Part shown: positions 1,763-62,878 of the stretch, piece by piece
How the letters are laid out: each line of letters starts with the position of its first letter
How positions within the stretch are numbered: position 1 is the first letter of the stretch
Assembly: GCA_964016885.1 (NCBI GenBank)
Contig: OZ024750.1
Location: 26,164,001 to 26,228,000, forward strand
Direction of reading: 5' to 3'
Length of the DNA stretch: 64,000 nt
Source of the DNA: Eledone cirrhosa
Taxonomy: Eukaryota
Program-made: the position numbers and the translations under genes
The notes under the pieces: generated by a model
What the model was told of the DNA's origin: nothing
Seen by the model: the letters and a program-made list of their open reading frames with translations, nothing else
Database searches by the model: none

Positions 1763-1941
1763 GTATATCATAAAGTTGTTACATAATTACGATAATTACA
1801 AACACACACATATATATATATATGTGTGTTTGTGTGTGTTTATGTGTGTGGAGGGTGTTGCAGATGCGGGTGTGTATGTGCATGTGTTTGTGTGTGTGTG
1901 TAAATATGATGTTTAATATAGAAATCTTATATATATTTCAG

Positions 1942-2076
1942 AATGCCGAATAGGAAAGTTTGGTCTCAATTGTAATAGGACATGCCAGTGTATCAACAAC
2001 ACAAACTGTGACCATCGAAATGGAACATGTTCAGATGAAGCTACTAAAAGTCGTATTGGTAACAATTGCCTAGAAG
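1942..2076 (+). pseudogene. Decayed EGF exon
   Basis: 135 nt and open, but the donor reads GG instead of GT and the seventh Cys is lost (SDEATKSR). Confidence 0.75.
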
Positions 2077-2103
2077 GGATATCATAAACTTGTTACGTAT
2101 TTA

Positions 2104-2143
<40 letters not shown>

Positions 2144-2160
2144 ACACACACACACACCCA

Positions 2161-2191
<31 letters not shown>

Positions 2192-2284
2192 CCACACACA
2201 TACATACACTCACACATACACACGCATACACTCAGACACGCACAAACGCACACACATATATATTTTTTGGGGCCTGTCTACGTG

Positions 2285-2316
<32 letters not shown>

Positions 2317-2484
2317 CATGTGTTTGTGTGTTTGATGTTTAATATAGAAATCAATTCTACTGGACTAGAATAGTTTTATCCAAAGAAAACATCACGAAAT
2401 GGCTTTCCTGATGATTACGTTTGAATGAAATAGTTCTAATAGTTTTAAATGTATATATATATATATTCTATATATATATAGAAC

Positions 2485-4410
2485 TGGTCATTCCGTATGG
2501 TCCACCTCGATGTAATATTATGGTGAGCACTCAACGTAATGCAACTCAACTGTCTTCGTTTGTGTTGTTGGTGGTGCGAGTACGGAGTTAATTATTATAG
2601 AATAACAGGAGGCTGGACTGGTGTAATTCCTTGAAAGGTTTATTATACTATGATCATTTCAATGACAGGGTTCAGTATGAATCCGGTGACATCATCAGGT
2701 ATTCAGAATATAACAAAGGAATATAATAGACAAAATCCATGGGGCTGAAAATCAGAGACATGAGGACGACCGAACATTCAGGAGCTTCTACCTCGGTCGA
2801 CCGCCCCCAATTGTTTCTATACAGATGAGAGACGTGTATTTACGCTTAAACAATGAATCAATCTGTTACAATTAATAATTTATGTCCAGTGTTACTACGT
2901 TAGCATAGCAAATTGCATTACTAATGATTTAGAATAGTGATACTTTTACTATCATGAGTGTGAATTGCCGCTGTTGAAAGATGTAGTGAACAATTAAGTT
3001 GATATAATAGACTTAAACATGCTTACGTTCAATTATATCATACCATATATAAACGCAAGCCTCTCCGAGATATTACCATACCAAGCAAGTTAGAGGTGTA
3101 ATATCTTAGACGGTTATCATAAGACCATACGTTAGGAAGTACGTCTGTAGACGCATAGCTTAAAAAATACGCACGGGTGGGTATATTCATATATAAACAT
3201 ACGTACGCACGTGTTTGTACATCCTCCAATGCATATACTCGTAAATATACGCAGATACATAGAATAAGTGTACATGCACACATGGTAATACGAGGTACGT
3301 AATATAGTTAGTACCAGTTATAAGACACAAACCGGTATTCACACGCCGTAGTGCATTTTGATAGAATTCTTTACATTTCCGGAAATATTCGTTGTTCGAC
3401 CATATCTTAAAGAAGTGGAAAATTGTGAATTTTCCCTTCCTGCATGATGCGAAGTGTTCACTGCATGTGGTGTTTCTGACAGTGGGATCTCCAATTTATT
3501 TTTTATGGACCCGAACCCTATCATGTAGACCCGTTCTCAAATGTAGTATTCTTCACGTTGTGGGCAGGTCACACAATAAATTAAGGTTTTTGTTTTGCAA
3601 TTCACGCTTGCCTTAAATTTGAAAATGTCATTGTTTTAAAAGGAGATTTGCCCTCTCTCTTCAATGAATGAACAAGTTCCGTATCAAGGGTTCCCGCATT
3701 TCTTAACTTACATTGATTCATTGTCGGACGTAAATTTCGCCTCAATAAACAGTATTTTTAAAGTTAGGTGCTTGGCGTCTACTATATAGTATTTGTGAGT
3801 CTTTTATGAGTGCTTTCATTTTGGAGGACTGCTTGAGAATCGGGAGATATTGTTTAGCGTCTTTCATGATGTTGAAGTTCTGGGCTATTCTGGGCCTTGG
3901 AGATGGCCGTATTGATGAAGTTCACCGGATAGTATATTAAGGAGCTCTTTTAGTTCATATAATCTTTTTTCCTATAGTGTGGTTTGTGTTTCTATGGTGC
4001 AAATGCGTTTTGTCATATAAAAGGGAATGTTCCTTTTGGTATGTGAGTGGTGTGCCTACCGGAAATTCAAGTACTGGTGTGTGTCTGTTCGTTTGTAAAA
4101 TAGGTCTGTTTTTATATTTTCCCCTTCTTTAATGATAGTGATATCCCAAAACGGTCGTCCCTTTTTGTTTCAATCCATGGTAAATTGTCTTGCTTCGTGA
4201 AGCCTGTTTATGATGAAATGGAATCTTTGTAGGTCTCCTTGGCTTCTATTAAAGAAGATGAAGCAGTCGTCTAGGTAACATTTCCAGTTGTTATTAATGT
4301 AGGTGGCAAAGTCGTGACTGAAAGCGTCTTGCAGCTGGGAATATAATTTTACCTCTAGGTGACCCAAGACGAGTGTTACATATGTTGGGGCTACTTTGGT
4401 GCCCATGGCT
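2485..4410 (-). mobile_element. Decayed Penelope-like element (RT fragment, endonuclease region, 3' tail)
   Basis: MGTKVAPTY...YLDDCFIFF...FTM PLE RT motifs at 4170-4406, downstream TDLFYKRTDTHQYL; HHR-like motif near the 3' end. Confidence 0.75.
2645..2702 (-). ncRNA. Hammerhead motif in PLE 3' repeat
   Basis: ATAC-CTGATGA-(imperfect stem II)-GAAA-TGATCA-TA-GTAT; palindromic ATGATCAT stem III. Confidence 0.55.
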
Positions 4411-5822
4411 GTTTCTTTTGTGTATGTATGTATATATATATTCCTGCGATTGTCTGTTTTTTCTTCTTTCTTTTCTGTTATTCCGAACTATATATATATA
4501 TATACATAATATTTTACCTTTGAACAGAAATACACGGACTACCTGCCGGTTATATAGGGATACTTTTGTTGGTCCCATTTATGTTACTTGTACTTGTGAT
4601 TGCAGCGGTCATGTACAGGTATGTGATTTCTTGTATCAATACAATTGTTAGAAGTAATTGGTGAATTTCAATCTGTCTGATGTTTAGATTTAGAATCAAT
4701 AAAATTGTATTTTTCTTTTATAATTGTATATTGTGTAATTGACCTTCGTATGTTTCAGCGATGAGTTTTCAATATGATAACTTATTTTCCCAGTTGTTCG
4801 GTGAATATTAATGACCACGTATAATATTAAATGTACTAATTGCAGTCGTTTGACTAATTATTGCCTCATAATTTGAGCAGGACATTTAAAAAATTTCTTT
4901 TTCACACAAACATAGTAATTGTGTTTGATAGGCTAAAACAAGCTTTGCCTTGATGTTATTTCAATAGAGATACATCAGGCATAAAGTTGGAAACTGTAAA
5001 GTATTACATCATGTTCTCAATATTGTGAATTTCCTATATATTTCATATTAGTATTTTATTGTTTTGACTAGAAATATTTTGATTAGCTAATTACATTTTC
5101 TATAGCCCAAGCAATATCAAGTTTATTTTTTATACCGTTACAATTACAAAATGTCACGAGTCATAGGCATACTTATTGAAACAGTTTATAATTGAGTCTA
5201 ATATGTTAGAATCTTTTAAAAATATCCTTTAAAAAATACTCGTACGAATTAAATACAAAATTTTCAGTCGAAAACAAAAGCAAATTACTTCAAATTATAT
5301 AATTTTGAAAAATAGATGTGAATGTTCTCAAAGACTTGATCTCAGTCAAATAATCTTTTTTTAATTTTTATTCTATATTTTACTGTTAGCTGTTGCCATA
5401 TTTTGAGTGGATAGACAATTCTACAATTCAAACTGTAAAGTCAAAATATAAAAGATACAAAATGTGAAGGATTTCTTACCTTTCTCTGGATTCTCAAACT
5501 CAAGGGAAAAATAGTACCTTGCAAAATAGAGTGCTTCGATCACAAACTTAGTTGCAAAGAATAAATTGAGATGCTTGGTGACAGTGAGCAAGAAAAATCT
5601 GTATCCCTTATATATATACATAGATAGATAGACACGCACACACATGCACGCACACACGCACACACACATACACGCACACACACACTTGTGTGTGTGTGCG
5701 TGTGTGTGTGTGTGCCTTGTTTTTGGTACAGAAAGAATTTTTGTCTCCAGTTTATATTTCCGTATTCCCGGGTCAAAGGCCACTGTTCTGTTCAACAACG
5801 TAAAATAACGCCATACAGACAC

Positions 5823-5879
<57 letters not shown>

Positions 5880-5973
5880 CACGTATCTATATATATATAT
5901 ATATGTGTAGTGATAGAACACTGGAAGGTAATATCCGTAGTGGTTGAGCACTCTGTCCATGGGACGAGTTAGG

Positions 5974-8273
<2,300 letters not shown>

Positions 8274-8474
8274 AATGTATATATATATATATATAACGTA
8301 GGAGGTGTGGTACGGAACCAGATGGATCATAATGCACCAGATTACTCAATACTTGGGTAGTAGAGTGGGTAATAGGAACATGTTTAAGCCGTTTCGACGG
8401 CTGTTTCTGGACTCCAGAAATAACCGTCGAAACGGCTTGAGCACTGCCGTCGGGGTTAAACATTTTCCTATATA

Positions 8475-8508
<34 letters not shown>

Positions 8509-8573
8509 AATGAAGAGAGAATGTGGGTAGGACAGAGAGAGAGTAAGAAATGTGTCTGTGTGTTTGGTACCCG

Positions 8574-8608
<35 letters not shown>

Positions 8609-8609
<1 letters not shown>

Positions 8610-9146
8610 CCCATTTGTGGCGCCTCCCCCCTATTGGGGATTTCGATTGTTGAAATTGTTTGTTTTTATAGTTTTTACACGACTGTATGTAAAATCCCCG
8701 GCATGTCTTTGTATTGTCCCCTTTCTTGTTGCGCCCTTGTGGCTAATAAAGAAATCTATCTATCTATGTATCTATCTATCTATTGGAGATTTCGATTGTT
8801 GAAATTGTTTGTTTTTATATTTTTTACACGACTGTATCTAGAATTTACTGAAAGGTGGGCGAATGAAGTGAATATCGCCCGAGTGATTGGGCCTTCTCTG
8901 TTTATAAGCCTGTAGGTTAAAGAAGAGAACAAAAGGAAGAAAGGAGAAATTGCACAATACGCTCCTGGAGTAGAGGGTTGTTCTATCGACGGGTATTAAA
9001 CAACCCATTTGTGGCGCCTCCCCCCTATTGGGGATTTCGATTGTTGTAATTATTTGTTTTATATTTTTTACACGACTGTATGTAAAATCCCCGGTATGTC
9101 TTTGTATTGTCTCCTTTTCTTGTGCGCCCTTGTGGCAAATATAGAA

Positions 9147-9199
<53 letters not shown>

Positions 9200-11148
9200 A
9201 CTACCTGGACTTGGAGAAACCACAGTTGTCAAGGTGAACGGCTACCTCTCGGAGCCGTTCCATATTACGCGATCCATTCGACAGGGATGCCCTCTCTCCT
9301 CCCTTCTGTACGTACTGACTCTCGAGCCACTACTGCGGAAGCTGGAGCTATTGCAGGGCATCCTTCTGGAACCGGGACTGCGGAAAGCGGCGTCGGCCTA
9401 CGCCGACGACGTGACAGTAATGGTGTTGAGCGCCTCACAAATCGAGGAAGTCGGCACCTTACTAAAGGAATACGAAAGTCTCACAGGAGCGAAGCTGAAC
9501 CGGGACAAGTCCATCGGTTTGCAACTCGGATCGTGGAGAGGCAGACCGATGCCTTCCGATGGCGTCGTCGGACGCTGGACGGAAGGACCGGTAAAGCTGC
9601 TCGGGGTCTGGTTTGGTCCGGACCTCCAGGTGGAGAAGAACTGGAACGAAGTGACGGCCAAGGTGTTTGCACTCACCCAGAAGTGGGCCGAGTGCAAACT
9701 ATCCTTGAAAGGTCGAGCGGAGGTGGCGAACACTTTTATAGCGTCCGCCATCTACTACCGCTTGACCGTCGTGCCTTGTCCAGCCAAAACGCTCGCCAAA
9801 ATGGAGCGCGCTGTTCCGATTCCTTTGGAAGAGGCGGGCTCCTTTGGTGAGAAGATCCATCTGCTGCCAACACCCTTCTAACGGAGGGCTGGGGATGCCG
9901 TGGTTGACGATGCGCAAACACCCGCTCAGGCTGCGGCATCTCTACGTATTCCTCACCGGACAACCGGTGTGGGCCCCGTTCGTGAGGCGAGCCTTCCCAC
10001 GACTCGTCTCGCTGACCGAGCTGCAGTCCTGGGTCAAGCAGAGACCGAGGAAAATGGGCGACTGGCACATCGAATGTGCTCAGGCGCTCACAGCCCTCTG
10101 GCAGGCGGACCCGGCGATCAGTGGAGACTCCACTTCATCATTCTATAGAGGGTTGGTCCGCAGCAAGTGCGACGACGCGCTCGGTGAAACTCTAGGCGTA
10201 GAGGAAGATGAACTGGCCAGTCTGTTCGGTAGGACCTTCCGCCCGTGACCGATGGACAACTTCCAAAAGTCCCTGGCCTGGCAGTGCTACCGAGGAGCTC
10301 TACCAGTTCGAGACAAGCTCTACAGACATGGGCGCCCGGGCAGGGACCCTGCAAAAGAGATCTGTCCGAGGTGCGTGCGAGACGAAGAAACCGTCGCGCA
10401 TGCATTCATACACTGCCCGGGCGTCACTGACCTGTGGGGCTATGTAGAACGACTATTGTCGCGGGTGGGACCGATCCAGTTGACCACCGAGTCCATTGTC
10501 ATGATCAAACCGCCACCCTCCTTCAAAAACGAAGGAGAGGCGGTTTTCCTTTGTGTGATAGCTATGGCGAAAGAGGTTGTATGGTGGACAAGGTTGAAAG
10601 GGCTGAGGTCAGACACCTTTCTCTCCGGCCAACAACTGATTCTTTTTTTCAAATACCACTTTGGAAGAAGAATCAGGATGGAGAGAGAGGTGCTGTACCC
10701 CAGCAAGTTTTATGAAAGGTGGGTGAAAGTGGCGAGAATGGCCCGAGTGAATGGGCCTTCTCTCTATATCAGCCTGTAGGTTGAGGAAAAGGAGGAGGAG
10801 AGGAAAGGAGTACAAGCTCTTCGTACTCCTGGAGATGAGGGTTGCACATTTTTTTCGGGGGTATGTGTTACCCATATAAACTGTCTCCCTCTATTGGGGA
10901 AAATCGACTAACTTTTAAATTCCATCTGTGATAACATTTTACACGTTTTTATTGTATGTAAACTTCCCCCTTTGTATTTGTCCCCTTCTTTTGTGCCCCT
11001 GTAGCTAATAAAGAAATATATCTATCTATTGGAGATTTCGATTGTTGAAATTGTTTGTTTTTATATTTTTTACACGACTGTATGTAAAATCCCTGGCATG
11101 TCTTTGTATTGTCCCCTTTCTTGTTGCGCCCTTGTGGCTATTAAAGAA

Positions 11149-11149
<1 letters not shown>
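8609..11149 (+). mobile_element. Cluster of 5'-truncated L1/Tx1-clade LINE copies separated by (TCTA)n
   Basis: RSIRQGCPLS, AYADDVT, CPRC..ETVAHAFIHC (zf-RVT); repeated 3' UTRs ending AATAAAGAAA(TCTA)n; longest copy 9200-11016. Confidence 0.9.
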
Positions 11150-11208
<59 letters not shown>

Positions 11209-11212
11209 CTCC

Positions 11213-11622
11213 AACAGGGGGCTGAAACATACGGCCCGCAAACTACTTTTCTATGGCCTGTGGTAGAACCAATATTTCAGATTCCATTATAACTGGTGAA
11301 AATAAGGCGGTGAGCTGGTGGAATCGTTAGCACATCTGGCGAAATCCTTAGCGGTACTTCTTCTGTGTTTACGTTGTTAGTTCATATTCCGCCGATCTCA
11401 ACTTTGCTTTTCATCCTTTTGGAGTCGATAATCTAAGTACCAGTTGTGAACTGGGATCGATGTAATCGACTGGACCCTAAACCCCAAATTTCCTGCCTTG
11501 TGTCTATAGTAGAAATAATTGTAACTGGTGAAAATCATCACCCACCACAACGTTTGGCCCACTGTGCCTCTCCTACAGGACGTAATGGCCGTTTTATGCC
11601 CTTGAGTTTGAGAGTCCTCTTC
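11213..11622. mobile_element. hAT-like MITE interrupted by a SINE
   Basis: CAGGGGGCTGAAAC...GGCCCGC start and GAGTTTGAGAGTCCTC end; the paralog at 29198-29602 has clearer TIRs. Confidence 0.55.
11304..11521 (+). mobile_element. tRNA-derived cephalopod-type SINE
   Basis: GGCGGTGAGCTGG head, TTCATCCT..GTCGATAA..AAGTACCAG body, 14-bp TSD TAACTGGTGAAAAT (11290-11303 / 11522-11535). Confidence 0.8.
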
Positions 11623-11887
11623 TACACACACACACTCATATATATGCATCCACTTTACTTTTTTTCTGTATCTGGACTACGCCCATGCTGTAGCATCACC
11701 TTGGTAAGTTATGGGGACGTCAACAAACCAACAAGCATTCGTGGGAGGGCAAACACAAACGCAAAGACAGACACAGGCATATATATATATATACGACGAG
11801 CTTCTGTTAGTTTTGCTCTATCAAATCTCCCCACAGGGTTTGGTCGGCCCGGGCAGTGTGACTGAACCCGGAAACATGTGTATATCG

Positions 11888-11985
11888 TATTAAATTAACA
11901 ATGAAAATAAAAACAACAAAGTCAAGTTACTTTATAACTTCGTTGTTTTTAATTTGTTGTTTTTATTTTCATTGTTAATTTAATA
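11888..11985. repeat. Perfect 33-bp inverted repeat
   Basis: TATTAAATTAACAATGAAAATAAAAACAACAAA ... TTTGTTGTTTTTATTTTCATTGTTAATTTAATA. Confidence 0.85.
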
Positions 11986-12469
11986 AATAATATCTGACTC
12001 TGTATCTAAAGAATTAACTCAGCGAGACACAGAACTTCACTATGGATTTTACGGAATTAGATTGAGTTTTATCTACGGTAGGGACCCTACTACCAGAGGT
12101 AGACCACACTGAAAAGGAAAAAAAAATTATATATGTGTGTGTGTGTATTATATATATATATATATATAAAACTACATACATATGTACATACATTTACCTA
12201 TGTGTATAACTATACATTTATATATGTGTATGTATGCATGCATTTATGTTTAAGTGCGTGTATATGTGAGATGATTTAAATAGTTTTGGGTAAGGAGAAA
12301 ATTTTGCCTCCAGATTTTATTACCTAGGGAGATTAACACAACAGTTGTTCCTCCTCATCAAACACCAACGCCGGCCTGTATCTAGTATACATGTGTATGT
12401 ATGTATGTATGTATGTATGTATGTATGTATGTATGTATGTATGTATGTATGTATGTATGTATGTATGTA

Positions 12470-19419: not shown

Positions 19420-21700
19420 CATGGTAAAATGTACAAGTCTCCTTCGACCAAATCGCAACTACAACCGTTGTATACAGTGAAGGCACGAGCTTAACCAAGA
19501 ATTATATGAAGCATACAAACAATCTGAACCCCAAAAGTTCGGTTTTATGCAAAGGCTAAAAACTTTGTGGAACTCCAAACACCCAGAATTAGACTTTTCT
19601 CCAAAGCATTTAAATGAACAGGCAAAACGTATCATTAGATGTAAATTGATACATCTAACGGAATTGAGTGATACTACAAATACAGCCCTTGCAGACAACC
19701 ACCCCACCTCCACTGACAGACAAAGAGAATGGCCAGCTAAATCTAACAGTGAACAGCTCACCAACAATTTTGCTGAAATCCATCCCACTTCCACTGAAGA
19801 ACAGCGAGAAAGGTCAGCTAACTCTAGTAGTAATTGTCACCACATCAACAACGAGGCTGAAATTCATGACTCTACTGTACAAACAGAAGACCAAAAACTA
19901 GTGGACACCTTACAAGTGAAATGGGACGATATGTTTCAAGAGATACACAGCGTTAATGTGAGTGACAGACCATACAAGACCAGAACCAGTAAAGAACCCA
20001 CTAAATTGGAATTGGAAGCGGTGAACGAAATAGCTGGCAATTATCTGAAGGTTATACGATCTAAAGGTGTAGAAACGACATTTGAAACGCTTAATATTTT
20101 GTTATGTTTCAGCTGTCACATTGCTATCATATAACACACATCTAAAACTACGTAATCAAGATACAAACAAAAAGCCTGAACCAGCGTGCATGCGAAATTT
20201 AAAAAGCAAAATTTTGTCCCTAAGACGAAGTATCTCACACATCGCAGTCGTTATGAAATGCAACATAGAGAGCAACTTCACACGACACCAGGAAGACCTA
20301 AAAAAAAAGTTAGAGAGACGATTTGGAGATACAAAATTTAAAACTTTGAACTCCAAATTACACCAGTTGAAACAACAACTCACAGCTACAACAGAAAGAC
20401 TAAAATATAAGTCAACAGCACATAAACGACAAGTACTAAATAGATTGTTTGCCAGAGATCCTAAATCAGTTTATCGCAGCTTCGGTGGCAAAAGCTCAAT
20501 CCCTGTAAATGACACCCCTTCAAAAGAACAGGTTGAGAGCTACTGGAGATCTGTATGGGAAACGGATGACGGATTCAACCGACAAACTAATTGGCTAAAA
20601 GAACTGGAACAGGACTACTGCCAACATGTCCAGACAAAACAATATGACATAGATGGGTCAATACTGGAAACAGCTCTACAGAAAATGTCGAATAGGAAAT
20701 CACCAGGCCAAGACCTCATTACAGGATACTGGTTGAAGAATTTCACTTTCTATCGGCAAGATCTCATACGGCTGTTTACAGAAACCATTAAAGGCACACA
20801 AGAACTGCCCAGATGATTATCAACTGCCACTACTCTCCTCATTCCCCAAAATAGCCAAACCACCCTTGCTAAAAATTACCGCCCAATAGCCTGCCAAAAC
20901 ATCATGTATAAATTATATACTGGGTGCCTTAACCTGTTCTTACAGGATCACTGTGATACCAACAACATCATAACACCTGAGCAAGCTGGTAGAAAGAGGG
21001 AGGTGTGGGGTTGCATAGATCACCTACTAACTAATAAAATGATTCAGGAAAAAACAACAAAGAATCGCAGAAACATGACTGTGGTGTGGCTGGACTATCA
21101 AAAAGCATTTGATAGTGTACCTCATGGGTGGATTATTAAGGCTTTACAGTTAGCCAAAGTCCCACAAACATTGGTAGCTGCTGTTGAACGCATGACCAAG
21201 AACTGGTACACCGATTTGATCCTTAGAGGTGAGAAGGAGCAAGTTAAGACTGATAAGATACATTACCAGAAGGGCATCTTTCAGGGTGATAGCTTGTCAG
21301 TGCTACTCTTCGTTCTCTCACTAAATCCACTATCTTACCTACTCAGAAAACAAGGTGGACAAAGAAGTGGGTCCAGAAGTATCTCCCATCTTTTCTTTGT
21401 TGATTACCTGAAGTTGTATGGGCCAAATACCAATGACACCAAGAAACAATTGGACCTCATTACACAATTTTAAACACAGGAGTTTACAAATCCAGTATCC
21501 AAGATACACCTTTACCTTCATACCCATCATTATTGGAGCTACGGGTTATATACTAACCCGCTTGAACCAAAGTATGACTGAACTTGGATTTGCGGACAAA
21601 GAGCGCAGCTCCCTCATTTATAGTCTACAAATGGATGCGATAGCCGGTACCTTCAACATTTTCAAAACATTCTTGCGATTCAAGGGATGGCAATTTCTTT
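19420..21700 (+). mobile_element. R4/Dong-clade non-LTR retrotransposon, frameshifted and internally deleted
   Basis: N-terminal W..KHPEL..L.EQA, KSPGQD, NYRPIAC, EQAG, WLDYQKAFDSVPH, GIFQGDSLS, C-terminal IPIIIGATG. Confidence 0.8.
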
Positions 21701-26796: not shown

Positions 26797-26933
26797 CATA
26801 CACATACACAAACTTCAGTGTGCGTGTGTGTGCCTTGGTTTTGGTACAGAAAGAATTTTGACTCCAGTTTTTATTGCCAGGTCAAACGCCACTGCTCTTT
26901 TTAACGACGCCAAATAACAAGGCCATATATATA

Positions 26934-27498
26934 TTAATTTTTAATTTTTAAAATTTTCTTATTTTACGTCTTTCATATAATTGTTCTGCATCCCCCTGCA
27001 TTGAACCACCTAGGTACTTTGACATAACTTATATATTTACTAGTATTAGTGTACATCTGTACGCATATGTTGGTAGATGTATTAATTCTCTATATTTATC
27101 TCCAAATTATTTGTTGAGCAAACTTACCAAATCTACTGCTAATTCATTATAGTAGTAGTAGGCTCTTGTCATAATACCACCCCACTCCTAATTGACTAAC
27201 CTCAGTGTCACGTGATTGATACTTTAGAATCCACCACTGACCAGAGATAGTGAACTTTTTCAGTGCTATGGAATTTTGTCCCCGCTAGCTTATTACATCC
27301 ACTGAATAATTATTTTTATATCGGTTTCTAGTGTCCGCGCATTGCCTGGGAACTTAGCTGAGAATAGACTCCCTGACGACGTAATGAATTCTCTATAGTT
27401 ATATATAACTATATTTATCCCATTACAGAAACTAATTAGTTGGAGTGAAAGTTTTAGTAAGTTAATTCTTAATTTTTAAAATTTTCTTATTTTACGTC

Positions 27499-27502
<4 letters not shown>
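26934..27502 (+). mobile_element. Family A retrozyme-like monomer (528-bp unit plus ~45-bp terminal direct repeat) in (TA)n
   Basis: Diverged homolog of the 560-bp array unit; TTAATTTTTAAAATTTTCTTATTTTACGTCTTTC at both ends. Confidence 0.8.
27368..27446 (+). ncRNA. Type I hammerhead ribozyme, family A
   Basis: ACTCC-CTGACGA-CGTAATG...CATTACA-GAAA-CTAATTAG-TT-GGAGT. Confidence 0.85.
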
Positions 27503-27568
<66 letters not shown>

Positions 27569-27647: not shown

Positions 27648-29170
27648 ATCTAGAATTTACTGAAAGGTGGGTGAATGAAGTGAATATGGCCCGAGTGATT
27701 GGGCCTTCTCTGTTTATAAGCCTGTAGGTTAAAGAAGAGAACAAAAGGAAGAAAGGAGGACTTGCACAATACGCTCCTGGAGTAGAGGGTTGTTCTATCG
27801 ACGGGTATTAAACAACCCATTTGTGGCGCCTCCCCCCTATTGGGGATTTCGATTGTTGTAATTATTTGTTTTATATTTTTTACACGACTGTATGTAAAAT
27901 CCCCGGTATGTTTTTGTATTGTCCCCTTTTCTTGTGCGCCCTTGTGGCAAATATAGAAATCTATCTATCTATATATCTGTGGAAGAAGCAGGCTCCGCTG
28001 GTGAGGACATCCGCCTGCTGTCAGCACCCTTCCAACGGAGGCTGGGAATGCCGCGGCTGATGATGCGCAAACATGCGCTGAGGCTGCGGCATCTCCAGGT
28101 ATTCCTCACCGACCCCCAACCGGTGTGGGCACCATTTGTGAGCAGGCTTTCCCACAGCTCGTCTCGCTGACGAAGCTGCAGTCCTGGGTGAAGAAAAGAC
28201 CGAAAACGATGGGCGCCTGGCACATTGAATGCGCTCAGGCGCTCACAGTCCTCTGGCAAGCGGGCGCAGCAATCAGTGGAGACACCACTTCGACATTCTA
28301 TAGAGGGATTGTACGTTACAAGGGCGACGGCGTGCTCGGAGAGACTCTGGGCGTCGAAGAAGATGAGCTCGCCAGTCTGTTTGGTAGGACTTTCCGCCCG
28401 TGACCTATGGACAACGTCCAGAGGTCCCTGGCCTGGCAGTGCTACCGAGGAGGTCTACTGGTTCCTGACAAGTCCTACAGGTACGGACGCCCCGGCAGGG
28501 ATCCTTCCAAGAGGACGTGTCCAAGATGCGCACAGGACATTGAAACAGTCCTGCACGCAATTGTACACTTCCCGAGCCCAACCGACCTGTGGAACTATGC
28601 AGAACAACTGCTGTCGCGTATGGGACAAATCCAGTTGACTGCCGAGTCCATAGTATGGATCAAACCGCCAGCCTCTTTCAAAAACGAAAGAGAGACGGTT
28701 TTCCTCTGTACGGTGACTATGGTCAAAGAAGTTATATGGTGGACGAGGTTGAGAGGACTCAGGACAGATGCCTTTCTCTCCGGACAACAATTGATTCCGT
28801 TCTTTAAGTATCACTTTAGAAGGAGAATCAGGGTGGAGAGAGAGGCACTGCACCACAGTAAGTTTACTGAAAGGTGGGTGAATGAAGCGAAAATGGCCCG
28901 AGTGATTGGGCCTTCTCTGTTTATAAGCCTGTACGTTGAAGAAGAGAGCAAAAGGAAGAAAGGAGAACTTGCACAACACGCTACTGGAGTTGAGGGTTGT
29001 TCTATCGACGGGGTATTAAATAACCCATTTGTGGCCCCTCGCCCCTATTGGGGATTTCGATTGTTGTAATTGTTTGTTTTTATATTTTTTACACGACTGT
29101 ATGTAAAATCCCGGGCATGTCTTTGTATTGTCCCCTTTTCTTGTGCGCCCTTGTGGCTAATAAAAAAAAA
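27648..29170 (+). mobile_element. Two 5'-truncated Tx1 LINE copies in (TCTA)n
   Basis: Homologous to 8837-11016; ORF 28407-29069 has a zf-RVT-like CPRC. Confidence 0.85.
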
Positions 29171-39879: not shown

Positions 39880-42989
<3,110 letters not shown>

Positions 42990-44216
42990 CTGTCTTTATC
43001 CCATTGCAGAAACTAATTAGTTGGAGTGAAAATTTAAGTAAGAAAAAAATTTTTTTAAAAATTTTTTAAAAAAAATATTTTCTTATTTTACGTCCTTTAT
43101 ATTATTGTTCTGCATTCTCCTGCATTGAACCACCTAGGTACTATGACATAACCTGTGTATTTGCTGGCATGGGCGTGCATCTGTGCGCTTATGTTAGTCG
43201 ATATATTAAATTATCTATATTTATCTCCAAATCACTGATTTGTCGAGCAAACTTGTCAAAACCACTTCTAAAAAAAAAATTTTTTTTGGGGTGTTAGTAG
43301 GCGTCAGTCATCTTACCATCCCATTCCTTCTAACTAGCCTCTGTGTCACGTGATTGATTCTTTAGAATCGGCCATTTGACTTGAAGCAGTGAGAATTTCG
43401 GTACATAGAATCCAGTCCTCGCAAGCTGTTCGATCTACCGAATTATTATTATTTTTATATGAGCCGCCAGTGTCCGCGCATTGCCTGGAGACTTAACTGA
43501 GAATAGACTTCCTGATGACGCAATGAATTCTCGACAGTTGGATTACGTAACTGTCTTTATCCCATTGCAGAAACTAATTAGTTGGAGTGAAAATTTAAGT
43601 AAGAAAAAAATTTTTTTTAAAAATTTTTTTAAAAAAATATTTTCTTATTTTACGTCCTTTATATTATTGTTCTGCATTCTCCTGCATTGAACCACCTAGG
43701 TACTATGACATAACCTGTGTATTTGCTGGCATGGGCGTGCATCTGTGCGCTTATGTTAGTTGATATATTAAATTATCTATATTTATCTCCAAATCACTGA
43801 TTTGTCGAGCAAACTTGTCAAAACCACTTCTAAAAAAAATTTTTTTTGGGGTGTTAGTAGGCGTCAGTCATCTTACCATCCCATTCCTTCTAACTAGCCT
43901 CTGTGTCACGTGATTGATTCTTTAGAATCGGCCATTTGACTTGAAGCAGTGAGAATTTCGGTACATAGAATCCAGTCCTCGCAAGCTGTTCGATCTACCG
44001 AATTATTATTATTTTTATATGAGCCGCCAGTGTCCGCGCATTGCCTGGAGACTTAACTGAGAATAGACTTCCTGATGACGCAATGAATTCTCGACAGTTG
44101 GATTACGTAACTGTCTTTATCCCATTGCAGAAACTAATTAGTTGGAGTGAAAATTTAAGTAAGAAAAAAATTTTTTTTAAAAATTTTTTAAAAAAAATAT
44201 TTTCTTATTTTACGTC

Positions 44217-44220
<4 letters not shown>
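42990..44220 (+). mobile_element. Family A tandem array, inverted arm, ~2.2 units; HHRs at 43507-43588 and 44067-44148
   Basis: Reverse complement of the left arm; ends TTACGTCCTTT then (AT)n. Confidence 0.9.
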
Positions 44221-44307
<87 letters not shown>

Positions 44308-47242: not shown

Positions 47243-47337
47243 TTTTATATCAGTTATAAAATATTTACTCGTTAAATAAAACTTTTGCATATATTTTGCT
47301 CCAATACCGTTGAGCGCTTTATATTATAACTGAAAAA

Positions 47338-49571
47338 ATGGAATTCTTTAAGATCTCTTCTTCTCTAAAAGACATACCTCTACCTAGAAACAAGGACTTT
47401 ATTAAACAACTAATAGATAAATCAGACTCCTTTATAAGGAGAATTAGGTGGCGTGCATTCCACTTTGATAAATCTAAATCTAACGTAAACGAAAATGTCT
47501 CAGACCTAGACAGAGTCTTCAAATCTAAAAAAAATCCACCCCCCAACAAACTTTTGAATGATTTTGAAAACGATATAATTTCTATCATACAAGGAGTCAG
47601 ATTCAAGAGAAACTTCAATGGCCAGGAATATCTGAAAGGCATTAGGGATAACATTGCGAGCTTAGAGAGAACAGAGAAGATCTTGGTGAAATCGGACAAA
47701 ACCAACAACCTCTATGGAGTAGAAAAAGACATGTATAATGGCCTCATACTGAAAGAACTAAGGAAAAAGTACAAGGTAGCAGATAAGGCTGAACTTGAGA
47801 AAATGAATGTTGAGGCATCATGTATAATGCATGAGTTGGAAATTGAGAACAAAACACAACCTTTCGTGCCTAGGAAACCCAAGATCAATATGAAAGATCA
47901 CAAGAGAAATTTTGAAAATGACTTGCCAGTCAGGTTGATTGCACTATCAAAATCTGACCTGGGTAAACTTAGCAAGAACATTCTAGACAGAGTGATACAG
48001 CAAATTAAGGACTTGAATTGTTTACCTGGCTTGACCTTGTGGAAGGGAACTGGGGAGGTCATTGAGTGGTTTAATGAAATTAAATATAACAATAATAATA
48101 AATTTATTCAACTAGATATTGCTAACTACTATTCATCCATTACCCCTAATCTACTTAATAAGGCACTAAATTACGCATTCAAGCATACAGACCTGACTAG
48201 CAATGAAATGCACATTATATTATCGGCAGGGAAAACTTTGATAGAATTTAATAACCAACTATGGACTAGGGCAGATAGAGATAATAATTTTGACATTACT
48301 ATGGGATCATCAGACTCAGCTCAGGTAACGGACCTTCTGGGCCTATTTATAATTAATTCGCTGCATAGGAAAATACCCGGTGTTACCGGTGGTTTATATA
48401 GAGATGACATGCTTTTACTTATTGAAAATAATAACTCTGAACTAAATAAGAAAATAAAATAAATTATACAATTTTTTAATTACCTTAATCTTAAAATAGA
48501 AATTGAGAATAACCATAGAATAGTCAATTTCCTAGACGTAACATTTAATCTCAACACATGTCTTCACTATCCATTTCACAAGTTAAATGAAAACTTGAAT
48601 TATGTCAATTTTAGCTCCAATCACCCCAGATCTGTCAAAAATACTATAGTGAACTCTGTTCAAAAACGTATCTCTAGAATCTCTTCCAATAAAAATATTT
48701 TTGACGAAAAAGCCCAGTATTATAATGAAGCTTTAGCTAGAGCAGGATATAGTGATAAAATTATGTACATCGATAATAGACAAACTAACCAAAATAACAA
48801 CAATTTTAATTACAGTAACAACTTTAACAACTATAATAGAAAGCACTACAATAATTTCAAAAACCAGAAAAGAAATAGAACTAGAAATATAATATGGTTT
48901 GCCCCCCCCCCCCCCCTTTCTCACTAAACATTAAAACCCACATCGCTAAACTATTTTTTAATGCTCTTGACAAACGCTTCCCTAGAACACATAAGTATCA
49001 CTCAATTTTTAATAGACATACTATAAAATTAACGTACTCGTCCACCAAAAATTTAGCACAAAATATTAATAGAATAAATAATAGGAATCTAAAACCTAGC
49101 CAAAATACCGAAAATAGCCTAAACAATATTCAACTAAAAAACTGTAACTGTAGAGATAGATCTAAATGTCCGCTAAATAACAATTGCTTAGTTAAAAATA
49201 TAATATACAACTGTAATGTTAGAACTGATTTAAATTCTTTTAATTATGTTGGTTCCACCTCGACAGAATTTAAACTTCGCTATAATAATCACAAAAATTC
49301 TTTCACGGATCCAAATAAAAAATCCTCAACATCGCTGTCAGGGTTACTCTGTCAACTTAAGCATGATAAAGTTGGCTATTCGATGGTTTGGAATATAGTC
49401 TCAAAAGGGATTCCTTTTAATTCCTCTTCTGAGACATGTGACCTCTGCGCGGAGGAGATATTCTTTATACTAAAATCAAAAAATTCCCTTAATTTACGAA
49501 CCAATTTATTCAGCTGTTGCAGACATAGATTGAACTCAACATTTAAATATAAATATAAATTTAAAATGTAG
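47338..49571 (+). mobile_element. Penelope-like element (Naiad-like) RT + GIY-YIG ORF with two lesions
   Basis: LDIANYYSSI, MGSSDSAQVTDLLG, YRDDM, CNCRDRSKCPL, YVGSTSTEFKLRYNNH, CDLC; in-frame TAA at 48460-48462, frameshift in the C run at 48902-48916. Confidence 0.9.
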
Positions 49572-50800
49572 TATAAAATGTAGTATATTTACTTAAGGTA
49601 TTTGACTATTTATGAAACTTGGCGATAAATCTTTCGATTCCTTCAATTTTTAAAACCTTTCTGCATGAATATATAATTAATGAGATTAAATAAACTACCC
49701 TAAAATTGGCGTTGCTCCCAATCTTTTGAATAAATTTTTTAAGCTGGATAAACTTCTATAATAAATATAAGAGCATTTGTAGAATAAGTTTTGAATGATT
49801 TCTGCTAAATAAGGCTTGGTGAACAATTTTGGTTTGTTTGCTTTTGATTCTGATTCTATGTGACCGATATGCGTGGCATACTATGTTCTCTTGCGTCCCT
49901 AGATACTCTGTGGAGTGACGAAGATATTCTTGGCGTTTTTAATTTTAATTTTAATATTGATATCTGTTGTCTACTCTATGCTTGATCGATGATCATGCAA
50001 GTGAGGCTGAAATGTTATTTTAGATGTTAATGTAAATCTTATATATTTTATGTCTATATATATGTATATATGTATGTAAATGTATGTAGGGTGGAATCTT
50101 TTGTAACGCATTGAAGTTTTTCATGAAATATAAGAATATGTGCAGCGTATCACGTAGGTTCACATGTGCGTCTATATTTATCAACTTGAATTTGAGATAA
50201 CCTTCTCTTTTCTCTTTTTTTTTTCACGAGAATGCATATATACTTATGTTTGAAGTTTTATCTCAAATTTTGCTTATAGACCTAAGAATTTTTAAACTGA
50301 GCATGTGGTCATTTTTTCACACTTTATGGATATGTGTCTCATTCATGAATACTGATATTTACATTATAACACCTAATTCATAAAAATTGATAATTCAAAT
50401 GGATGAGACATAATATATTTTTAATATATTTTAAATATATCATCTTTCTTTCTTTTTCTCCTTTACACTAGTTTAACTGTATCCCTTCCCTTAACCTCTC
50501 ACATATACGATGATCATCTGTCCAAAGGCAGCCTACTATATATATTTTTTCACCTCCTCAATGTATTTCTCTCTATCATATCTCCTTGTCTCTCTATCTC
50601 GCTCCGTTGTTTTTCTTTACATACATCTCTTCATCTTCTTCTTTTTTATTTACATACATCTCTTCATCTTCTTCTTCTCATCTTCGTTTTTCTTTCTATA
50701 TAACTGTCATAACAGTTTCACTACCAAATCAACTTTTTAAATGGAAGTTGCATTATTACAAGGTATGTCACTAATTATTTATAAAACAGCTTATGTATTG

Positions 50801-50866
50801 TATTTTGTCTGAGGAAGGCATAACATATTTTTAATATGATATCCCAGAAATATATATAACGAAATA
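50801..50866 (+). ncRNA. Type I hammerhead in PLE 3' region
   Basis: TATTTTGT-CTGAGGA-AGGCAT...ATCCCA-GAAA-TATATA-TA-ACGAAATA; 8-bp stem I; (TA)n ~40 bp downstream. Confidence 0.7.
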
Positions 50867-51026
50867 AATATGGTTTTATAAATATAGTTTCCATTTGTTT
50901 AATATCGTATATATATATATATATATATATTGAAGTGTTCATTCTACTGTCATGGCTATAAAATTGAGGCTTGTTTGCATAATTGCAAGCGAATCGAATG
51001 TTACTAATATTCGAAAAACTGTTATC

Positions 51027-53330: not shown

Positions 53331-53620
53331 GCCAACTTTGCCAAATTTAAATAAAAGAGACAATTTATATATACAAATATATACACAACAAAGCCTGCAG
53401 CTCCATTCACCTTCGCTGTCTCTTCTCCCTCTCTCTGTGGTCCTCTTTGAATCTACTCTCTTACCACCACAATCTCTCTCTCTCTATCTTTCACTCTCTC
53501 TCTTGTGTGTGTGTGGATGTGTGGTGGATGTGTGGTGGATGCAGGTGTGTATGTGCATGTGTGTGTGTGTGTGTGTGTGTAAATATGATGTTTAATATAG
53601 AAATCTTATATATATTTCAG

Positions 53621-53755
53621 AATGCCGAATAGGAAAGTTTGGTCTCAATTGTAATAGGACATGCCAGTGTATCAACAACACAAACTGTGACCATCGAAAT
53701 GGAACATGTTCAGATGAATCTACTAAAAGTCGTACTGGTAACAATTGCCTAGAAG
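53621..53755 (+). pseudogene. Decayed EGF exon (duplicate of 1942-2076)
   Basis: GG donor, lost Cys (SDESTKSR). Confidence 0.75.
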
Positions 53756-53782
53756 GGATATCATAAACTTGTTACGTATTTA

Positions 53783-53848
<66 letters not shown>

Positions 53849-53939
53849 ACACACATACATACACTCACACATACACACGCATACACTCAGACACGCACAA
53901 ACGCACACACATATATATTTTTTTGGGCCTGTCTACGTG

Positions 53940-53971
<32 letters not shown>

Positions 53972-54139
53972 CATGTGTTTGTGTGTTTGATGTTTAATAT
54001 AGAAATCAATTCTACTGGACTAGAATAGTTTTATCCAAAGAAAACATCACGAAATGGCTTTCCTGATGATTACGTTTGAATGAAATAGTTCTAATAGTTT
54101 TAAATGTATATATATATATATTCTATATATATATAGAAC

Positions 54140-56065
54140 TGGTCATTCCGTATGGTCCACCTCGATGTAATATTATGGTGAGCACTCAACGTAATGCAAC
54201 TCAACTGTCTTCGTTTGTGTTGTTGGTGGTGCGAGTACGGAGTTAATTATTATAGAATAACAGGAGGCTGGACTGGTGTAATTCCTTGAAAGGTTTATTA
54301 TACTATGATCATTTCAATGACAGGGTTCAGTATGAATCCGGTGACATCATCAGGTATTCAGAATATAACAAAGGAATATAATACACAAAATCCATGGGGC
54401 TGAAAATCAGAGACATGAGGACGACCGAACATTCAGGAGCTTCTACCTCGGTCGACCGCCCCCAATTGTTTCTATACAGATGAGAGACGTGTATTTACGC
54501 TTAAACAATGAATCAATCTGTTACAATTAATAATTTATGTCCAGTGTTACTACGTTAGCATAGCAAATTGCATTACTAATGATTTAGAATAGTGATACTT
54601 TTACTATCATGAGTGTGAATTGCCGCTGTTGAAAGATGTAGTGAACAATTAAGTTGATATAATAGACTTAAACATGCTTACGTTCAATTATATCATACCA
54701 TATATAAACGCAAGCCTCTCCGAGATATTACCATACCAAGCAAGTTAGAGGTGTAATATCTTAGACGGTTATCATAAGACCATACGTTAGGAAGTACGTC
54801 TGTAGACGCATAGCTTAAAAAATACGCACGGGTGGGTATATTCATATATAAACATACGTACGCACGTGTTTGTACATCCTCCAATGCATATACTCGTAAA
54901 TATACGCAGATACATAGAATAAGTGTACATGCACACATGGTAATACGAGGTACGTAATATAGTTAGTACCAGTTATAAGACACAAACCGGTATTCACACG
55001 CCGTAGTGCATTTTGATAGAATTCTTTACATTTCCGGAAATATTCGTTGTTCGACCATATCTTAAAGAAGTGGAAAATTGTGAATTTTCCCTTCCTGCAT
55101 GATGCGAAGTGTTCACTGCATGTGGTGTTTCTGACAGTGGGATCTCCAATTTATTTTTTATGGACCCGAACCCTATCATGTAGACCCGTTCTCAAATGTA
55201 GTATTCTTCACGTTGTGGGCAGGTCACACATTAAATTAAGGTTTTTGTTTTGCAATTCACGCTTGCCTTAAATATGAAAATGTCATTGTTTTAAAAGGAG
55301 ATTTGCCCTCTCTCTTCAATGAATGAACAAGTTCCGTATCAAGGGTTCCCGCATTTCTTAACTTACATTGATTCATTGTCGGACGTAAATTTCGCCTCAA
55401 TAAACAGTATTTTTAAAGTTAGGTGCTTGGCGTCTACTATATAGTATTTGTGAGTCTTTTATGAGTGCTTTCATTTTGGAGGACTGCTTGAGAATCGGGA
55501 GATATTGTTTAGAGTCTTTCATGATGTTGAAGTTCTGGGCTATTCTGGGCCTTGGAGATGGCCGTATTGATGAAGTTCACCGGATAGTATATTAAGGAGC
55601 TCTTTTAGTTCATATAATCTTTTTTCCTATAGTGTGGTTTGTGTTACTATGGTGCAAATGCGTTTTGTCATATAAAAGGGAATGTTCCTTTTGGTATGTG
55701 AGTGGTGTGCTGACAGGAAATTCAAGTACTGGTGTGTGTCTGTTCGTTTGTAAAATAGGTCTGTTTTTATATTTTCCCCTTCTTTAATGATAGTGATATC
55801 CCAAAACGGTCGTCCCTTTTTGTTTCAATCCATGGTAAATTGTCTTGCTTCGTGAAGCCTGTTTATGATGAAATGGAATCTTTGTAGGTCTCCTTGGCTT
55901 CTATTAAAGAAGATGAAGCAGTCGTCTAGGTAACATTTGCAGTTGTTATTAATGTAGGTGGCAAAGTCATGACTGAAAGCGTCTTGCAGCTGGGAATATA
56001 ATTTTACCTCTAGGTGACCCAAGACGAGTGTTACATATGTTGGGGCTACTTTGGTGCCCATGGCT
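54140..56065 (-). mobile_element. Duplicate of decayed PLE (HHR motif 54300-54357)
   Basis: Copy of 2485-4410. Confidence 0.75.
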
Positions 56066-57476
56066 GTTTCTTTTGTGTATGTATGTATATATATATTCCT
56101 GCGATTGTCTGTTTTTTCTTCTTTCTTTTCTGTTATTCCGAACTATATATATATATATACATAATATTTTACCTTTGAACAGAAATACACGGACTAGCTG
56201 CCGGTTATATAGGGATACTTTTGTTGGTCCCATTTATGTTACTTGTACTTGTGATTGCAGCGGTCATGTACAGGTATGTGATTTCTTGTATCAATACAAT
56301 TGTTAGAAGTAATTGGTGAATTTCAATCTGTCTGATGTTTAGATTTAGAATCAATAAAATTGTATTTTTCTTTTATAATTGTATATTGTGTAATTGACCT
56401 TCGTATGTTTCAGCGATGAGTTTTCAATATGATAACTTATTTTCCCAGTTGTTCGGTGAATATTAATGACCACGTATAATATTAAATGTACTAATTGCAG
56501 CGTTTGACTAATTATTGCCTCATAATTTGAGCAGGACATTTAAAAAATTTCTTTTTCACACAAACATAGTAATTGTGTTTGATAGGCTAAAACAAGCTTT
56601 GCCTTGATGTTATTTCAATAGAGATACATCAGGCATAAAGTTGGAAACTGTAAAGTATTACATCATGTTCTCAATATTGTGAATTTCCTATATATTTCAT
56701 ATTAGTATTTTATTGTTTTGACTAGAAATATTTTGATTAGCTAATTACATTTTCTATAGCCCAAGCAATATCAAGTTTATTTTTTATACCGTTACAATTA
56801 CAAAATGTCACGAGTCATAGGCATACTTATTGAAACAGTTTATAATTGAGTCTAATATGTTAGAATCTTTTAAAAATATCCTTTAAAAAATACTCGTACG
56901 AATTAAATACAAAATTTTCAGTCGAAAACAAAAGCAAATTACTTCAAATTATATAATTTTGAAAAATAGATGTGAATGTTCTCAAAGACTTGATCTCAGT
57001 CAAATAATCTTTTTTTAATTTTTATTCTATATTTTACTGTTAGCTGTTGCCATATTTTGAGTGGATAGACAATTCTACAATTCAAACTGTAAAGTCAAAA
57101 TATAAAAGATACAAAATGTGAAGGATTTCTTACCTTTCTCTGGAATCTCAAACTCAAGGGAAAAATAGTACCTTGCAAAATAGAGTGCTTCGATCACAAA
57201 CTTAGTTGCAAAGAATAAATTGAGATGCTTGGTGACAGTGAGCAAGAAAAATCTGTATCCCTTATATATATACATAGATAGATAGACACGCACACACATG
57301 CACGCACACACGCACACACACATACACGCACACACACACTTGTGTGTGTGTGCGTGTGTGTGTGTGTGCCTTGTTTTTGGTACAGAAAGAATTTTTGTCT
57401 CCAGTTTATATTTCCGTATTCCCGGGTCAAAGGCCACTGTTCTGTTCAACAACGTAAAATAACGCCATACAGACAC

Positions 57477-57535
<59 letters not shown>

Positions 57536-57631
57536 CACGTATCTATATATATATATATATATGTGTAGTGATAGAACACTGGAAGGTAATATCCGTAGTG
57601 GTTGAGCACTCTGTCCATGGGACGAGTTAGG

Positions 57632-59931
<2,300 letters not shown>

Positions 59932-60132
59932 AATGTATATATATATATATATAACGTAGGAGGTGTGGTACGGAACCAGATGGATCATAATGCACCAGAT
60001 TACTCAATACTTGGGTAGTAGAGTGGGTAATAGGAACATGTTTAAGCCGTTTCGACGGCTGTTTCTGGACTCCAGAAATAACCGTCGAAACGGCTTGAGC
60101 ACTGCCGTCGGGGTTAAACATTTTCCTATATA

Positions 60133-60166
<34 letters not shown>

Positions 60167-60231
60167 AATGAAGAGAGAATGTGGGTAGGACAGAGAGAGA
60201 GTAAGAAATGTGTCTGTGTGTTTGGTACCCG

Positions 60232-60266
<35 letters not shown>

Positions 60267-60267
<1 letters not shown>

Positions 60268-60804: not shown

Positions 60805-60861
<57 letters not shown>

Positions 60862-62810: not shown

Positions 62811-62811
<1 letters not shown>
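60267..62811 (+). mobile_element. Duplicate Tx1 LINE cluster in (TCTA)n
   Basis: Copy of 8609-11149; ORF 61506-62441 open. Confidence 0.9.

Positions 62812-62878
<67 letters not shown>

Follow-up and report, generated by a model that had tools for sequence, protein, structure and literature searches.

The repeat copy at positions 26934..27502 (plus strand) of the window, by which we mean the whole 64,000-nt stretch of Eledone cirrhosa DNA analysed here, raises the question of what one copy of slightly more than unit length can tell us about the fold of its RNA and about the template from which it was made. An earlier note took it for a diverged monomer of the tandem array in the same window, whose compensatory changes reveal selection on a hammerhead fold and whose length indicates reverse transcription around a circle. 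The geometry given there, a 528-bp unit plus a terminal direct repeat of about 45 bp, is accurate: the repeat is 46 nt long, is identical at 45 of 46 positions with a period of 528, and lies at 26934..26979 (plus strand), starting about 21 nt past the cut-site position, and at 27462..27507 (plus strand), where it continues into a (TA)n target tract at 27503..27565 (strand not applicable). At the 5′ end, too, there is a short (TA)n just before the copy (26925-26933), and with (TA)n on both flanks a target-site duplication, which in non-LTR retrozymes exceeds 4 bp where there is one, is unreadable. The parentage is another matter. The insertion belongs to a repeat that we call family A and is one-armed, 5′-truncated and 1.08 units long, with its 3′ end at a start site termed S1, but it is not a monomer of the array. 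It falls in an older subfamily of its own, S16, whose consensus it matches at 557 of 574 positions; it has three segmental duplicates at 98-100% identity and, among the 40 of 2,415 candidates that were scored, many dispersed relatives at 94-96%. These S16 relatives, together with the S16 match and the place of the array subfamily on a derived branch, rule out a decayed array unit. It is correct that much of the unit differs from the array (76% identity over the whole unit to the units at 40395-44224, so that 24% of bases, or about one in four, differ), but divergence from the array is the wrong framing, as S16 is a sister subfamily. The window itself lies within a tandem segmental repeat of about 60-70 kb (1831-12328 and 53506-64000; G000:C10 25.9-26.3 Mb), and the insertion is found in four copies of this repeat at 98-100% identity.

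The predicted type I hammerhead of the copy occupies 27368..27446 on the plus strand, with the predicted cut after GUU at 27441. Stem I (27368-72/27442-46) reads CTCC/GGAG versus TTCC/GGAG, and the 5′ strand CTTC of the array leaves one U-G pair. The core CTGACGA (27373-27379; CTGATGA in the array) is followed by an extra C at 27380, which together with an extra A at 27427 sits at the base of stem II, then by stem IIa, GTAATG/CATTAC (27381-27386/27421-27426; GCAATG/CATTGC in the array), and by the inner hairpin or stem IIb, TATAGTT/AACTATA (27394-27400/27407-27413; GACAGTT/AACTGTC in the array); the core element GAAA (27428-31) and a 12-nt palindromic stem III (27430-41) complete the fold, all on the plus strand. 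The differences from the array that the earlier note listed in stem II, the inner hairpin, stem I (U-G against C-G) and the core can each be read directly in the two sequences. The arrangement CUGANGA ... GAAA ... NUH with stems I-III, of which stem I is open, is that of a type I hammerhead, except that stem II is flanked on both sides by a single additional base and is split by an internal loop. Across copies, pairing reaches 99.3% in stem I, 98.9% in stem IIa and 97.8% in stem III. A candidate pseudoknot, in which GAGAAT (27360..27365, plus strand) is complementary to 27388-27393, is conserved and 92.8% paired, and none of its six pairs has a change on both sides. Rfam gave no match at the gathering score and no hammerhead among 13 matches at E ≤ 10, and the long split stem II places the family A hammerhead outside the Rfam models. 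Since Rfam is negative and this copy, taken alone, gives no better a fold than its shuffled versions (z = −1.0), support for the fold comes from comparison.

For that comparison, 124 complete units and the copy under study were grouped into 16 subfamily clusters, several of which hold only one or two units. The cluster of the array, S10, is the youngest (mean distance 0.7%) and lies on a derived branch of the subfamily tree, along which stem IIa passes through GAAAGG/CCTTTC, GTAAGG/CCTTAC, GTAATG/CATTAC and GCAATG/CATTGC. Hence the direction implied by the earlier note, from the array to the copy, is reversed, and the change in stem II is GTAATG to GCAATG. The second pair of stem IIa carries three Watson-Crick types across 16 of 16 consensuses and is the sole such pair among the 28,817 tested, these being the pairs of variable, gap-free columns in the 16 consensuses; the strict test bars G-U and single-row types, a looser version having let 3-5% pass the two-type test. 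Two types are seen in 16 column pairs, two of them in the predicted ribozyme and one in a long hairpin (+142/+153), and the remaining 13 are background from shared descent. In 30 genomic copies, the best matches to the subfamily consensuses, 95.0% of cells are paired compared with 87.9% in shuffles (slid controls, 38-49%), and double-change cells number 60 compared with 17. Counted by pairs instead of cells, double changes affect 6 pairs, which does not exceed the shuffles (196 of 500). Such pairs make up two of the six in stem IIa and four of the nine in stem IIb, and there are none in stems I and III, stem I having one-sided changes only and stem III none.

What stands of the claim that selection acts on RNA structure is that stem II and the inner hairpin covary across the 16 clusters; what does not stand is its application to this copy. 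The comparison supports, as far as sequences can, selection that would act at the level of source lineages and not on the copy at 26934..27502. The core change from CTGATGA to CTGACGA, which had been counted in favor of the fold, has no evidential value. Among 216 ribozyme copies (the top 70 variants listed), the sole carriers of CTGACGA are this insertion and the three segmental duplicates of it, and a change private to one insertion and its duplicates is rejected as a sign of selection. The copy holds a single ribozyme and is a monomer derivative, one unit short of the two by which Li et al. (bioRxiv 10.64898/2026.07.22.740005, in its accessible part) call an insertion active. Since it has one ribozyme only, it is unable to release unit-length RNA alone, and its private changes are for that reason unlikely to be under selection. 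The value of the family lies in the series: the 16 subfamilies form a natural set in which covariation can be followed in an atypical hammerhead that is missed by Rfam.

Family A is abundant. Three disjoint exact ribozyme motifs of 25-28 nt gave 936, 3,777 and 4,256 matches, reversed controls giving 0, which amounts to at least 8,969 exact matches in the 3.0-Gb genome. Within the window, a covariance-model search matched only family A copies (9 strong among the 10 listed). The unit is non-coding, arranged in tandem and low in GC, and carries one predicted type I hammerhead, which at the level of the family describes a non-LTR retrozyme. No ORF was found in it, the longest Met-started frames in two consensuses being 27 and 79 aa, and hence there is nothing of the ORF for RT with a C-terminal GIY-YIG endonuclease that marks an autonomous Hydra-clade element. 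A palindrome, GTCACGTGA(T) at 27207..27216 (strand not applicable), is conserved in 15 of the 16 consensuses; we take it to be E-box-like, and it may be a promoter element.

The ends of the copies are where family A departs from the prediction of circular permutation. A sample was drawn from most of the first 100 listed matches on contig C1 from each of two motif searches, and after 15 overlapping loci and all arms shorter than 28 nt had been dropped it comprised 219 arms at 125 loci. Their 3′ ends fall at S1 in 90 cases, at S2 in 100, elsewhere in 28 and at a locus edge in one. Fixed 3′ sites, two in number, account for 190 of the 219 arms, which rules out circular permutation of the ends, although the 5′ ends do vary. 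S1 lies at about +62 and S2 at about +178 from the predicted cut site, both are fixed 3′ ends beside (TA)n, and S2 ends are often trailed by extra (CT)n. In the copy under study S2 corresponds to 27086..27094 (plus strand) and is unused. Arms are frequently joined head-to-head, and among 77 such pairs we count 54 of S1 with S2, one of S1 with S1 that is rearranged, none of S2 with S2, and 22 with an unclassified arm, which gives S1 with S2 in 54 of 55 classifiable two-armed insertions. The same holds for young arrays, in which both ends are seen in 12 of the 20 examined and are S1 and S2 in 12 of 12. The array of the window is likewise a single two-armed insertion of subfamily S10 with a unit of about 560 bp (40395..44224), its minus arm (40395-42989) ending at S2 and its plus arm (42986-44224) at S1. 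Two fixed 3′ ends, a one-sided tail, variable 5′ truncation and an inverted second arm together are what mobilization by a Penelope-like protein would be expected to leave: the available portions of PMC8557442 and PMC3846280 give, as the Penelope pattern, a one-sided tail combined with an inverted arm, and the work on PAc links the tail to two internal start sites (PMC11167929, as far as accessible).

Which element might supply the enzyme is suggested by the window itself. A broken copy of PLE1, a Hydra-type Penelope-like element (PLE), lies at 47314..50908 (plus strand). It has a hammerhead-like motif of its own (50809) and shares with family A the layout of two sites and two hairpins, and PLE1 is a candidate for the kind of driver involved. 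The broken ORFs of the window carry RWR, DKT and CxCX5C motifs that fit the Hydra clade, for which (TA)n is the target according to the sections of PMC8557442 at hand; the Hydra label rests on these motifs because Pfam gave no match for three ORF pieces. At least 150 close copies of PLE1 are present, and in some of them the open frames come close to 750 aa. PLE1, PLE2 and PLE3 each have two end clusters, and the order ribozyme, S1, S2 is common to the family A unit and to the ends of PLE1 and PLE2. PLE3 is a third Hydra-type element, found with inverted arms at 5905-8175 and 57560-59830 (also L281-L299); its hammerhead-like motifs are at 6041 and 8108, and some 68 nt separate its two end clusters. 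PLE2 (L267 near 100-175) also has a hammerhead-like motif, with a long stem III and a core start, TTGAGAA, that resembles the U3-A8 core variant in the part of PMC4209133 consulted.

The feature that connects family A with these elements is a hairpin just behind each start. In the copy a bulged hairpin, H1, is predicted at 26983..27006 (plus strand), 7 nt behind S1, with a base helix GTTC/GAAC and a 2-nt 3′ bulge, and a further one, H2, at 27099..27119 (plus strand), about 8 nt behind S2. The hairpin descriptor fits 14 of the 16 subfamily consensuses at each of the two sites. Between the two sites a 21-bp hairpin is predicted (27034..27083, approximate ends, plus strand), which is kept by G-U pairs and two double changes. 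The structure in common is a hairpin 6-8 nt behind the start with an RCUC/GAGY base (GUUC/GAAC at S1 of family A) and a bulge of 1-2 nt; its descriptor fits all nine of the sites that could be read in families A, PLE1, PLE2, PLE3 and E (family B being outside this count), against a background of 84 matches in 128,000 window positions. The rule was stated before the ends were mapped in PLE3, E and B, the readable site of PLE3 being already known then; by the time the descriptor was coded, all of these sequences had been seen. In these later families the rule holds at both sites of E and at the sole readable site of PLE3, and it failed by eye in family B. No PLE ORF was found at three of three family E loci.

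The window holds further repeats. Four more hammerhead-like families, in most of which stem II is flanked by an additional base on both sides, are found in it: B (36627, 44772, 45135, 45803), D (1290, 37167, 51267, 53142), E (34076, 52735) and F (35252, 35414). Family E has two fixed ends with the shared hairpin and family B one main end (18 of 19). Fragments at 9086-10779, 27969-29069, 60658-62441 and 19481-21473, which we take to be other non-LTR retrotransposons with RT and a zinc-finger region, are unrelated to family A.

No DNA similarity is detected between family A and PLE1 loci, and alignments of its end regions with those of PLE1 and PLE2 are not above shuffles (128-492 of 500). The two kinds of element are joined in one chimera, in which an S16 arm ending at S1 is joined head-to-head to a PLE2 arm ending at its S2 (L092:1931-4001, L251:930-3352); its junction is without (TA)n, and no second case was found when 20 junctions, drawn from 58 unpaired arms, were inspected. 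We propose, with a probability of roughly 0.78, that family A is a protein-free retrozyme with a predicted conserved type I hammerhead, likely mobilized by a Hydra-type Penelope-like RT-endonuclease. More tentatively, and with somewhat less than even odds, the hairpins modelled here may be a duplicated RNA handle common to Hydra-type PLEs and the retrozyme, in which the bulged RCUC/GAGY hairpin would measure a TA 6-8 nt upstream, one handle serving each dimer subunit and DNA strand. For another Penelope-like protein, the accessible text of PMC11167929 describes internal initiation at two sites, extension of both strands and a predicted dimer.

The form of the template is a separate question. 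Arms cross a cut site in 169 of 190 cases and two cut sites in 44; 73 of 189 are longer than one unit and 8 of 189 longer than two. The template must continue through the cut site, because arms copied from a cut linear monomer could be no longer than 62 or 178 nt. The crossings are clean in 282 of 285 cases and have an indel within 5 nt in 3 of 285, about half of the 285 crossings having been selected by an exact or near-exact match there. Lineage polymorphisms agree among the repeated segments of one arm in 212 of 218 comparisons and across arms in 269 of 281, where chance would give 84 and 111 disagreements, respectively (the count leaves out the S1 and S2 zones). Moreover, two variants common to young insertions are fixed in all eligible units of both arms (19 of 19 and 35 of 35; 110 units in 21 young arrays), which points to a one-unit bottleneck with re-multiplication, most simply by way of a circle. 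An RNA circle model has been proposed in the available parts of PMC7229834 and PMC4209133, and we give a ligated circle slightly better than an even chance of being the template of family A, as judged from these DNA copies. The copy at 26934..27502 does not bear on the choice and is by itself ordinary: its 46-nt repeat is the remainder left by copying that begins 62 nt behind a cut site and ends about 21 nt before the next, and as it fits the circular, linear and jumping models alike, the slightly-more-than-unit length from which the earlier note had argued does not establish a circle.

The stops of the arms speak in part for a different template, namely tandem transcripts in which some ribozymes have cut, so that arms stop at the end of a linear RNA and arrays grow partly by DNA duplication. 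In a set of 179 arms, more stops than expected fall at +1..+15 (19 compared with 5.3) and at −90..−61 (28 compared with 12.8), and those at +1..+15 are more frequent in later passes (13 of 60) than in the first (6 of 74). Arms stop 0.25 times per 100 nt during the first pass and 0.51 times during the second, and at matched positions the second pass has 31 stops in 4,710 nt compared with 66 in 28,431 nt. The rise begins at the second cut site for S1 and S2 arms alike, and there is none after one lap (14/4,266 nt versus 6/3,900 nt, p = 0.12), a pattern that leans towards linear templates, as does the scarcity of arms above two units. Private variants common to neighboring units in three arrays (6 of 14, 2 of 9 and 2 of 6), adjacent or patterned, suggest duplication at the DNA level, and multimeric linear retrozyme RNAs occur in axolotl (PMC7229834, in the portion available). 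Yet the stops fall at +3..+15 and not at +1, which with the second excess suggests pausing at a structure, and variants fixed in every unit would still need the bottleneck and re-multiplication, so we regard a linear template as rather unlikely, though with an appreciable share of the probability. A 15-unit array, L231 (G000:C4:68365500-68375400), has one variant that is present in every unit but absent from the rest of the assembly, and a second in 6 of 14 units in an irregular pattern; a search for parent and offspring arrays found variant T318G 15 times, all in one array, and no parent array. The remaining possibility, that cut linear monomers were the template and the enzyme jumped, in the way of a telomerase-like enzyme, from the 5′ end of one molecule either to its own 3′ end or to that of a second, would account for stops and for a recurrent 4-nt indel just inside the 5′ end of the cut RNA. 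This indel lies at about +13 to +20 and is not uniform inside 36 of 86 insertions, and indel density at +11..+20 is 3.25 per 100 nt. This stretch of the unit (window 27452-27461) is a 4-nt repeat of two versus three copies in most subfamilies and, being located where stops pile up, may mark a polymerase pause. The extra (CT)n after many S2 ends is a sign of slippage, and template jumps have been proposed for Penelope elements in what is accessible of PMC3846280, but the cleanness of the crossings, even with about half of them selected by their match, makes jumping improbable, and a ligated circle remains our preferred template.

Two further explanations concern the identity of family A. The fold could be a relic or a protein-binding structure that does not cut in vivo, its covariation reflecting another role. 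The atypical core context with the extra base on each side of stem II and the failure of Rfam are in line with this, as is the predicted active monomer fold, which at −14.3 kcal/mol is not the lowest in energy (−15.6 kcal/mol; dimer energies were computed for the nested part of the fold only). In addition, 8 of 9 Xenopus retrozyme dimers were uncut in vitro (bioRxiv 10.64898/2026.07.22.740005) and Penelope minimal hammerheads cut poorly (PMC4209133), both as given in the accessible parts of these sources. A relic would hardly keep its core, its GAAA and its stem III palindrome across subfamilies that differ at about one base in four, nor collect stops beside the predicted cut, and we consider this explanation improbable, to a degree similar to or marginally less than that of jumping. 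Still less probable, in our judgment, is that the unit is a pseudo-LTR, the detached end of an autonomous Penelope-like element, so that its copies are truncated elements and not an independent retrozyme. Xenopus retrozymes do resemble pseudo-LTRs (bioRxiv 10.64898/2026.07.22.740005, in the part consulted), and the common order of ribozyme, S1 and S2 at the PLE1 and PLE2 ends is what would be expected. However, arms longer than one unit run into another unit among the arms listed, tblastn matches near family A copies are neighbors apart from one inverted chimera, and the 16 subfamilies evolved as whole units of 520-560 bp.

With an independent retrozyme driven by a Hydra-type enzyme as the preferred reading, the life cycle could run as follows. 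Tandem copies would be transcribed, and the ribozyme would cut, best as a dimer formed through the palindromic stem III. The enzyme would bind the bulged hairpin and set a nicked (TA)n strand on the TA 6-8 nt 5′ of it, and reverse transcription would start inside the RNA, at the TA that the hairpin measures. Two hairpins for two DNA strands would yield arms that meet head-to-head, one of them with a longer tail than the other. The copy at 26934..27502 would have started at S1, run for 1.08 units and stopped where stops are over-represented, and with one ribozyme only it would be a dead end. These proposals bear on how Penelope-like elements make inverted, one-tailed insertions, and on which enzyme moves animal retrozymes and how they are recognized. 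If the handle is real, it would explain the Penelope tail and inverted arm, and a ribozyme RNA circle without sequence kinship to its driver would borrow the enzyme of the latter through structural mimicry alone. The strict pairing of S1 with S2 and a hairpin common to autonomous elements offer a small and exact target for a test in vitro.

By the features read from its sequence, family A would be an animal non-LTR retrozyme mobilized in the manner of Penelope, and that class is already known. In a literature search mostly without subscription papers, neither a Hydra-type partner, nor the one-of-each count of sites, nor a repeated positioning hairpin, nor family A itself was found. A link between retrozymes and PLEs has already been argued from their distribution and from pseudo-LTR similarity (bioRxiv 10.64898/2026.07.22.740005, accessible part); family A has no sequence similarity to the two pseudo-LTRs with which it was compared. 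Animal non-LTR retrozymes, as described in the available parts of PMC7229834 and the same preprint, share with family A a non-coding, AT-rich unit with one type I hammerhead, of which there are thousands of copies, from monomers and dimers to multimers, in the company of Penelope-like elements. The unit of family A is 520-560 bp, compared with about 170-400 nt in expressed animal retrozymes and 51-972 bp in Li et al.; animal retrozymes have circular RNA, whereas family A is known here from DNA, and its fixed two-site ends, inverted arms and shared hairpin are features not described for animal retrozymes in these portions of the literature.

Hydra-clade PLEs, from what is accessible of Craig et al. 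(2021; PMC8557442), resemble family A in their (TA)n target, their hammerhead near the 3′ end, their partial tandems and their inverted, 5′-truncated arm with a tail on one end. Family A differs in having no ORF and a tail of about 116 nt compared with 30-40 bp, and non-autonomous partners of the Hydra clade were not found in those sections. PAc, the green anole Poseidon element (Frangieh et al., 2024; PMC11167929, consulted in part), likewise has two internal starts behind the ribozyme that set the tail, an AT-rich target and extension of both DNA strands; it needs RNA 3′ of the start sites, and ribozyme mutants had no effect on insertion in vitro. It belongs to another clade, however, and starts in an AC-rich stem-loop that is described as non-homologous to the target, whereas the ends of family A overlap a TA running into (TA)n, and the part consulted describes no repeated positioning hairpin like that of family A. 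As for the ribozyme, the closest forms in the available text of PMC4209133 and PMC7229834 are the minimal hammerheads of Penelope and axolotl HHR_Amex2, which share with family A a short stem I, a long stem II, an extra base between 9 and 10.1, a G10.1-C11.1 pair and a palindromic stem III suited to a dimer, HHR_Amex2 having a mismatch at the base of stem II (PMC7229834). Unlike these, the family A hammerhead has a 7x7 internal loop that splits stem II, a candidate pseudoknot to the flank of stem I and a palindrome of 12 nt.
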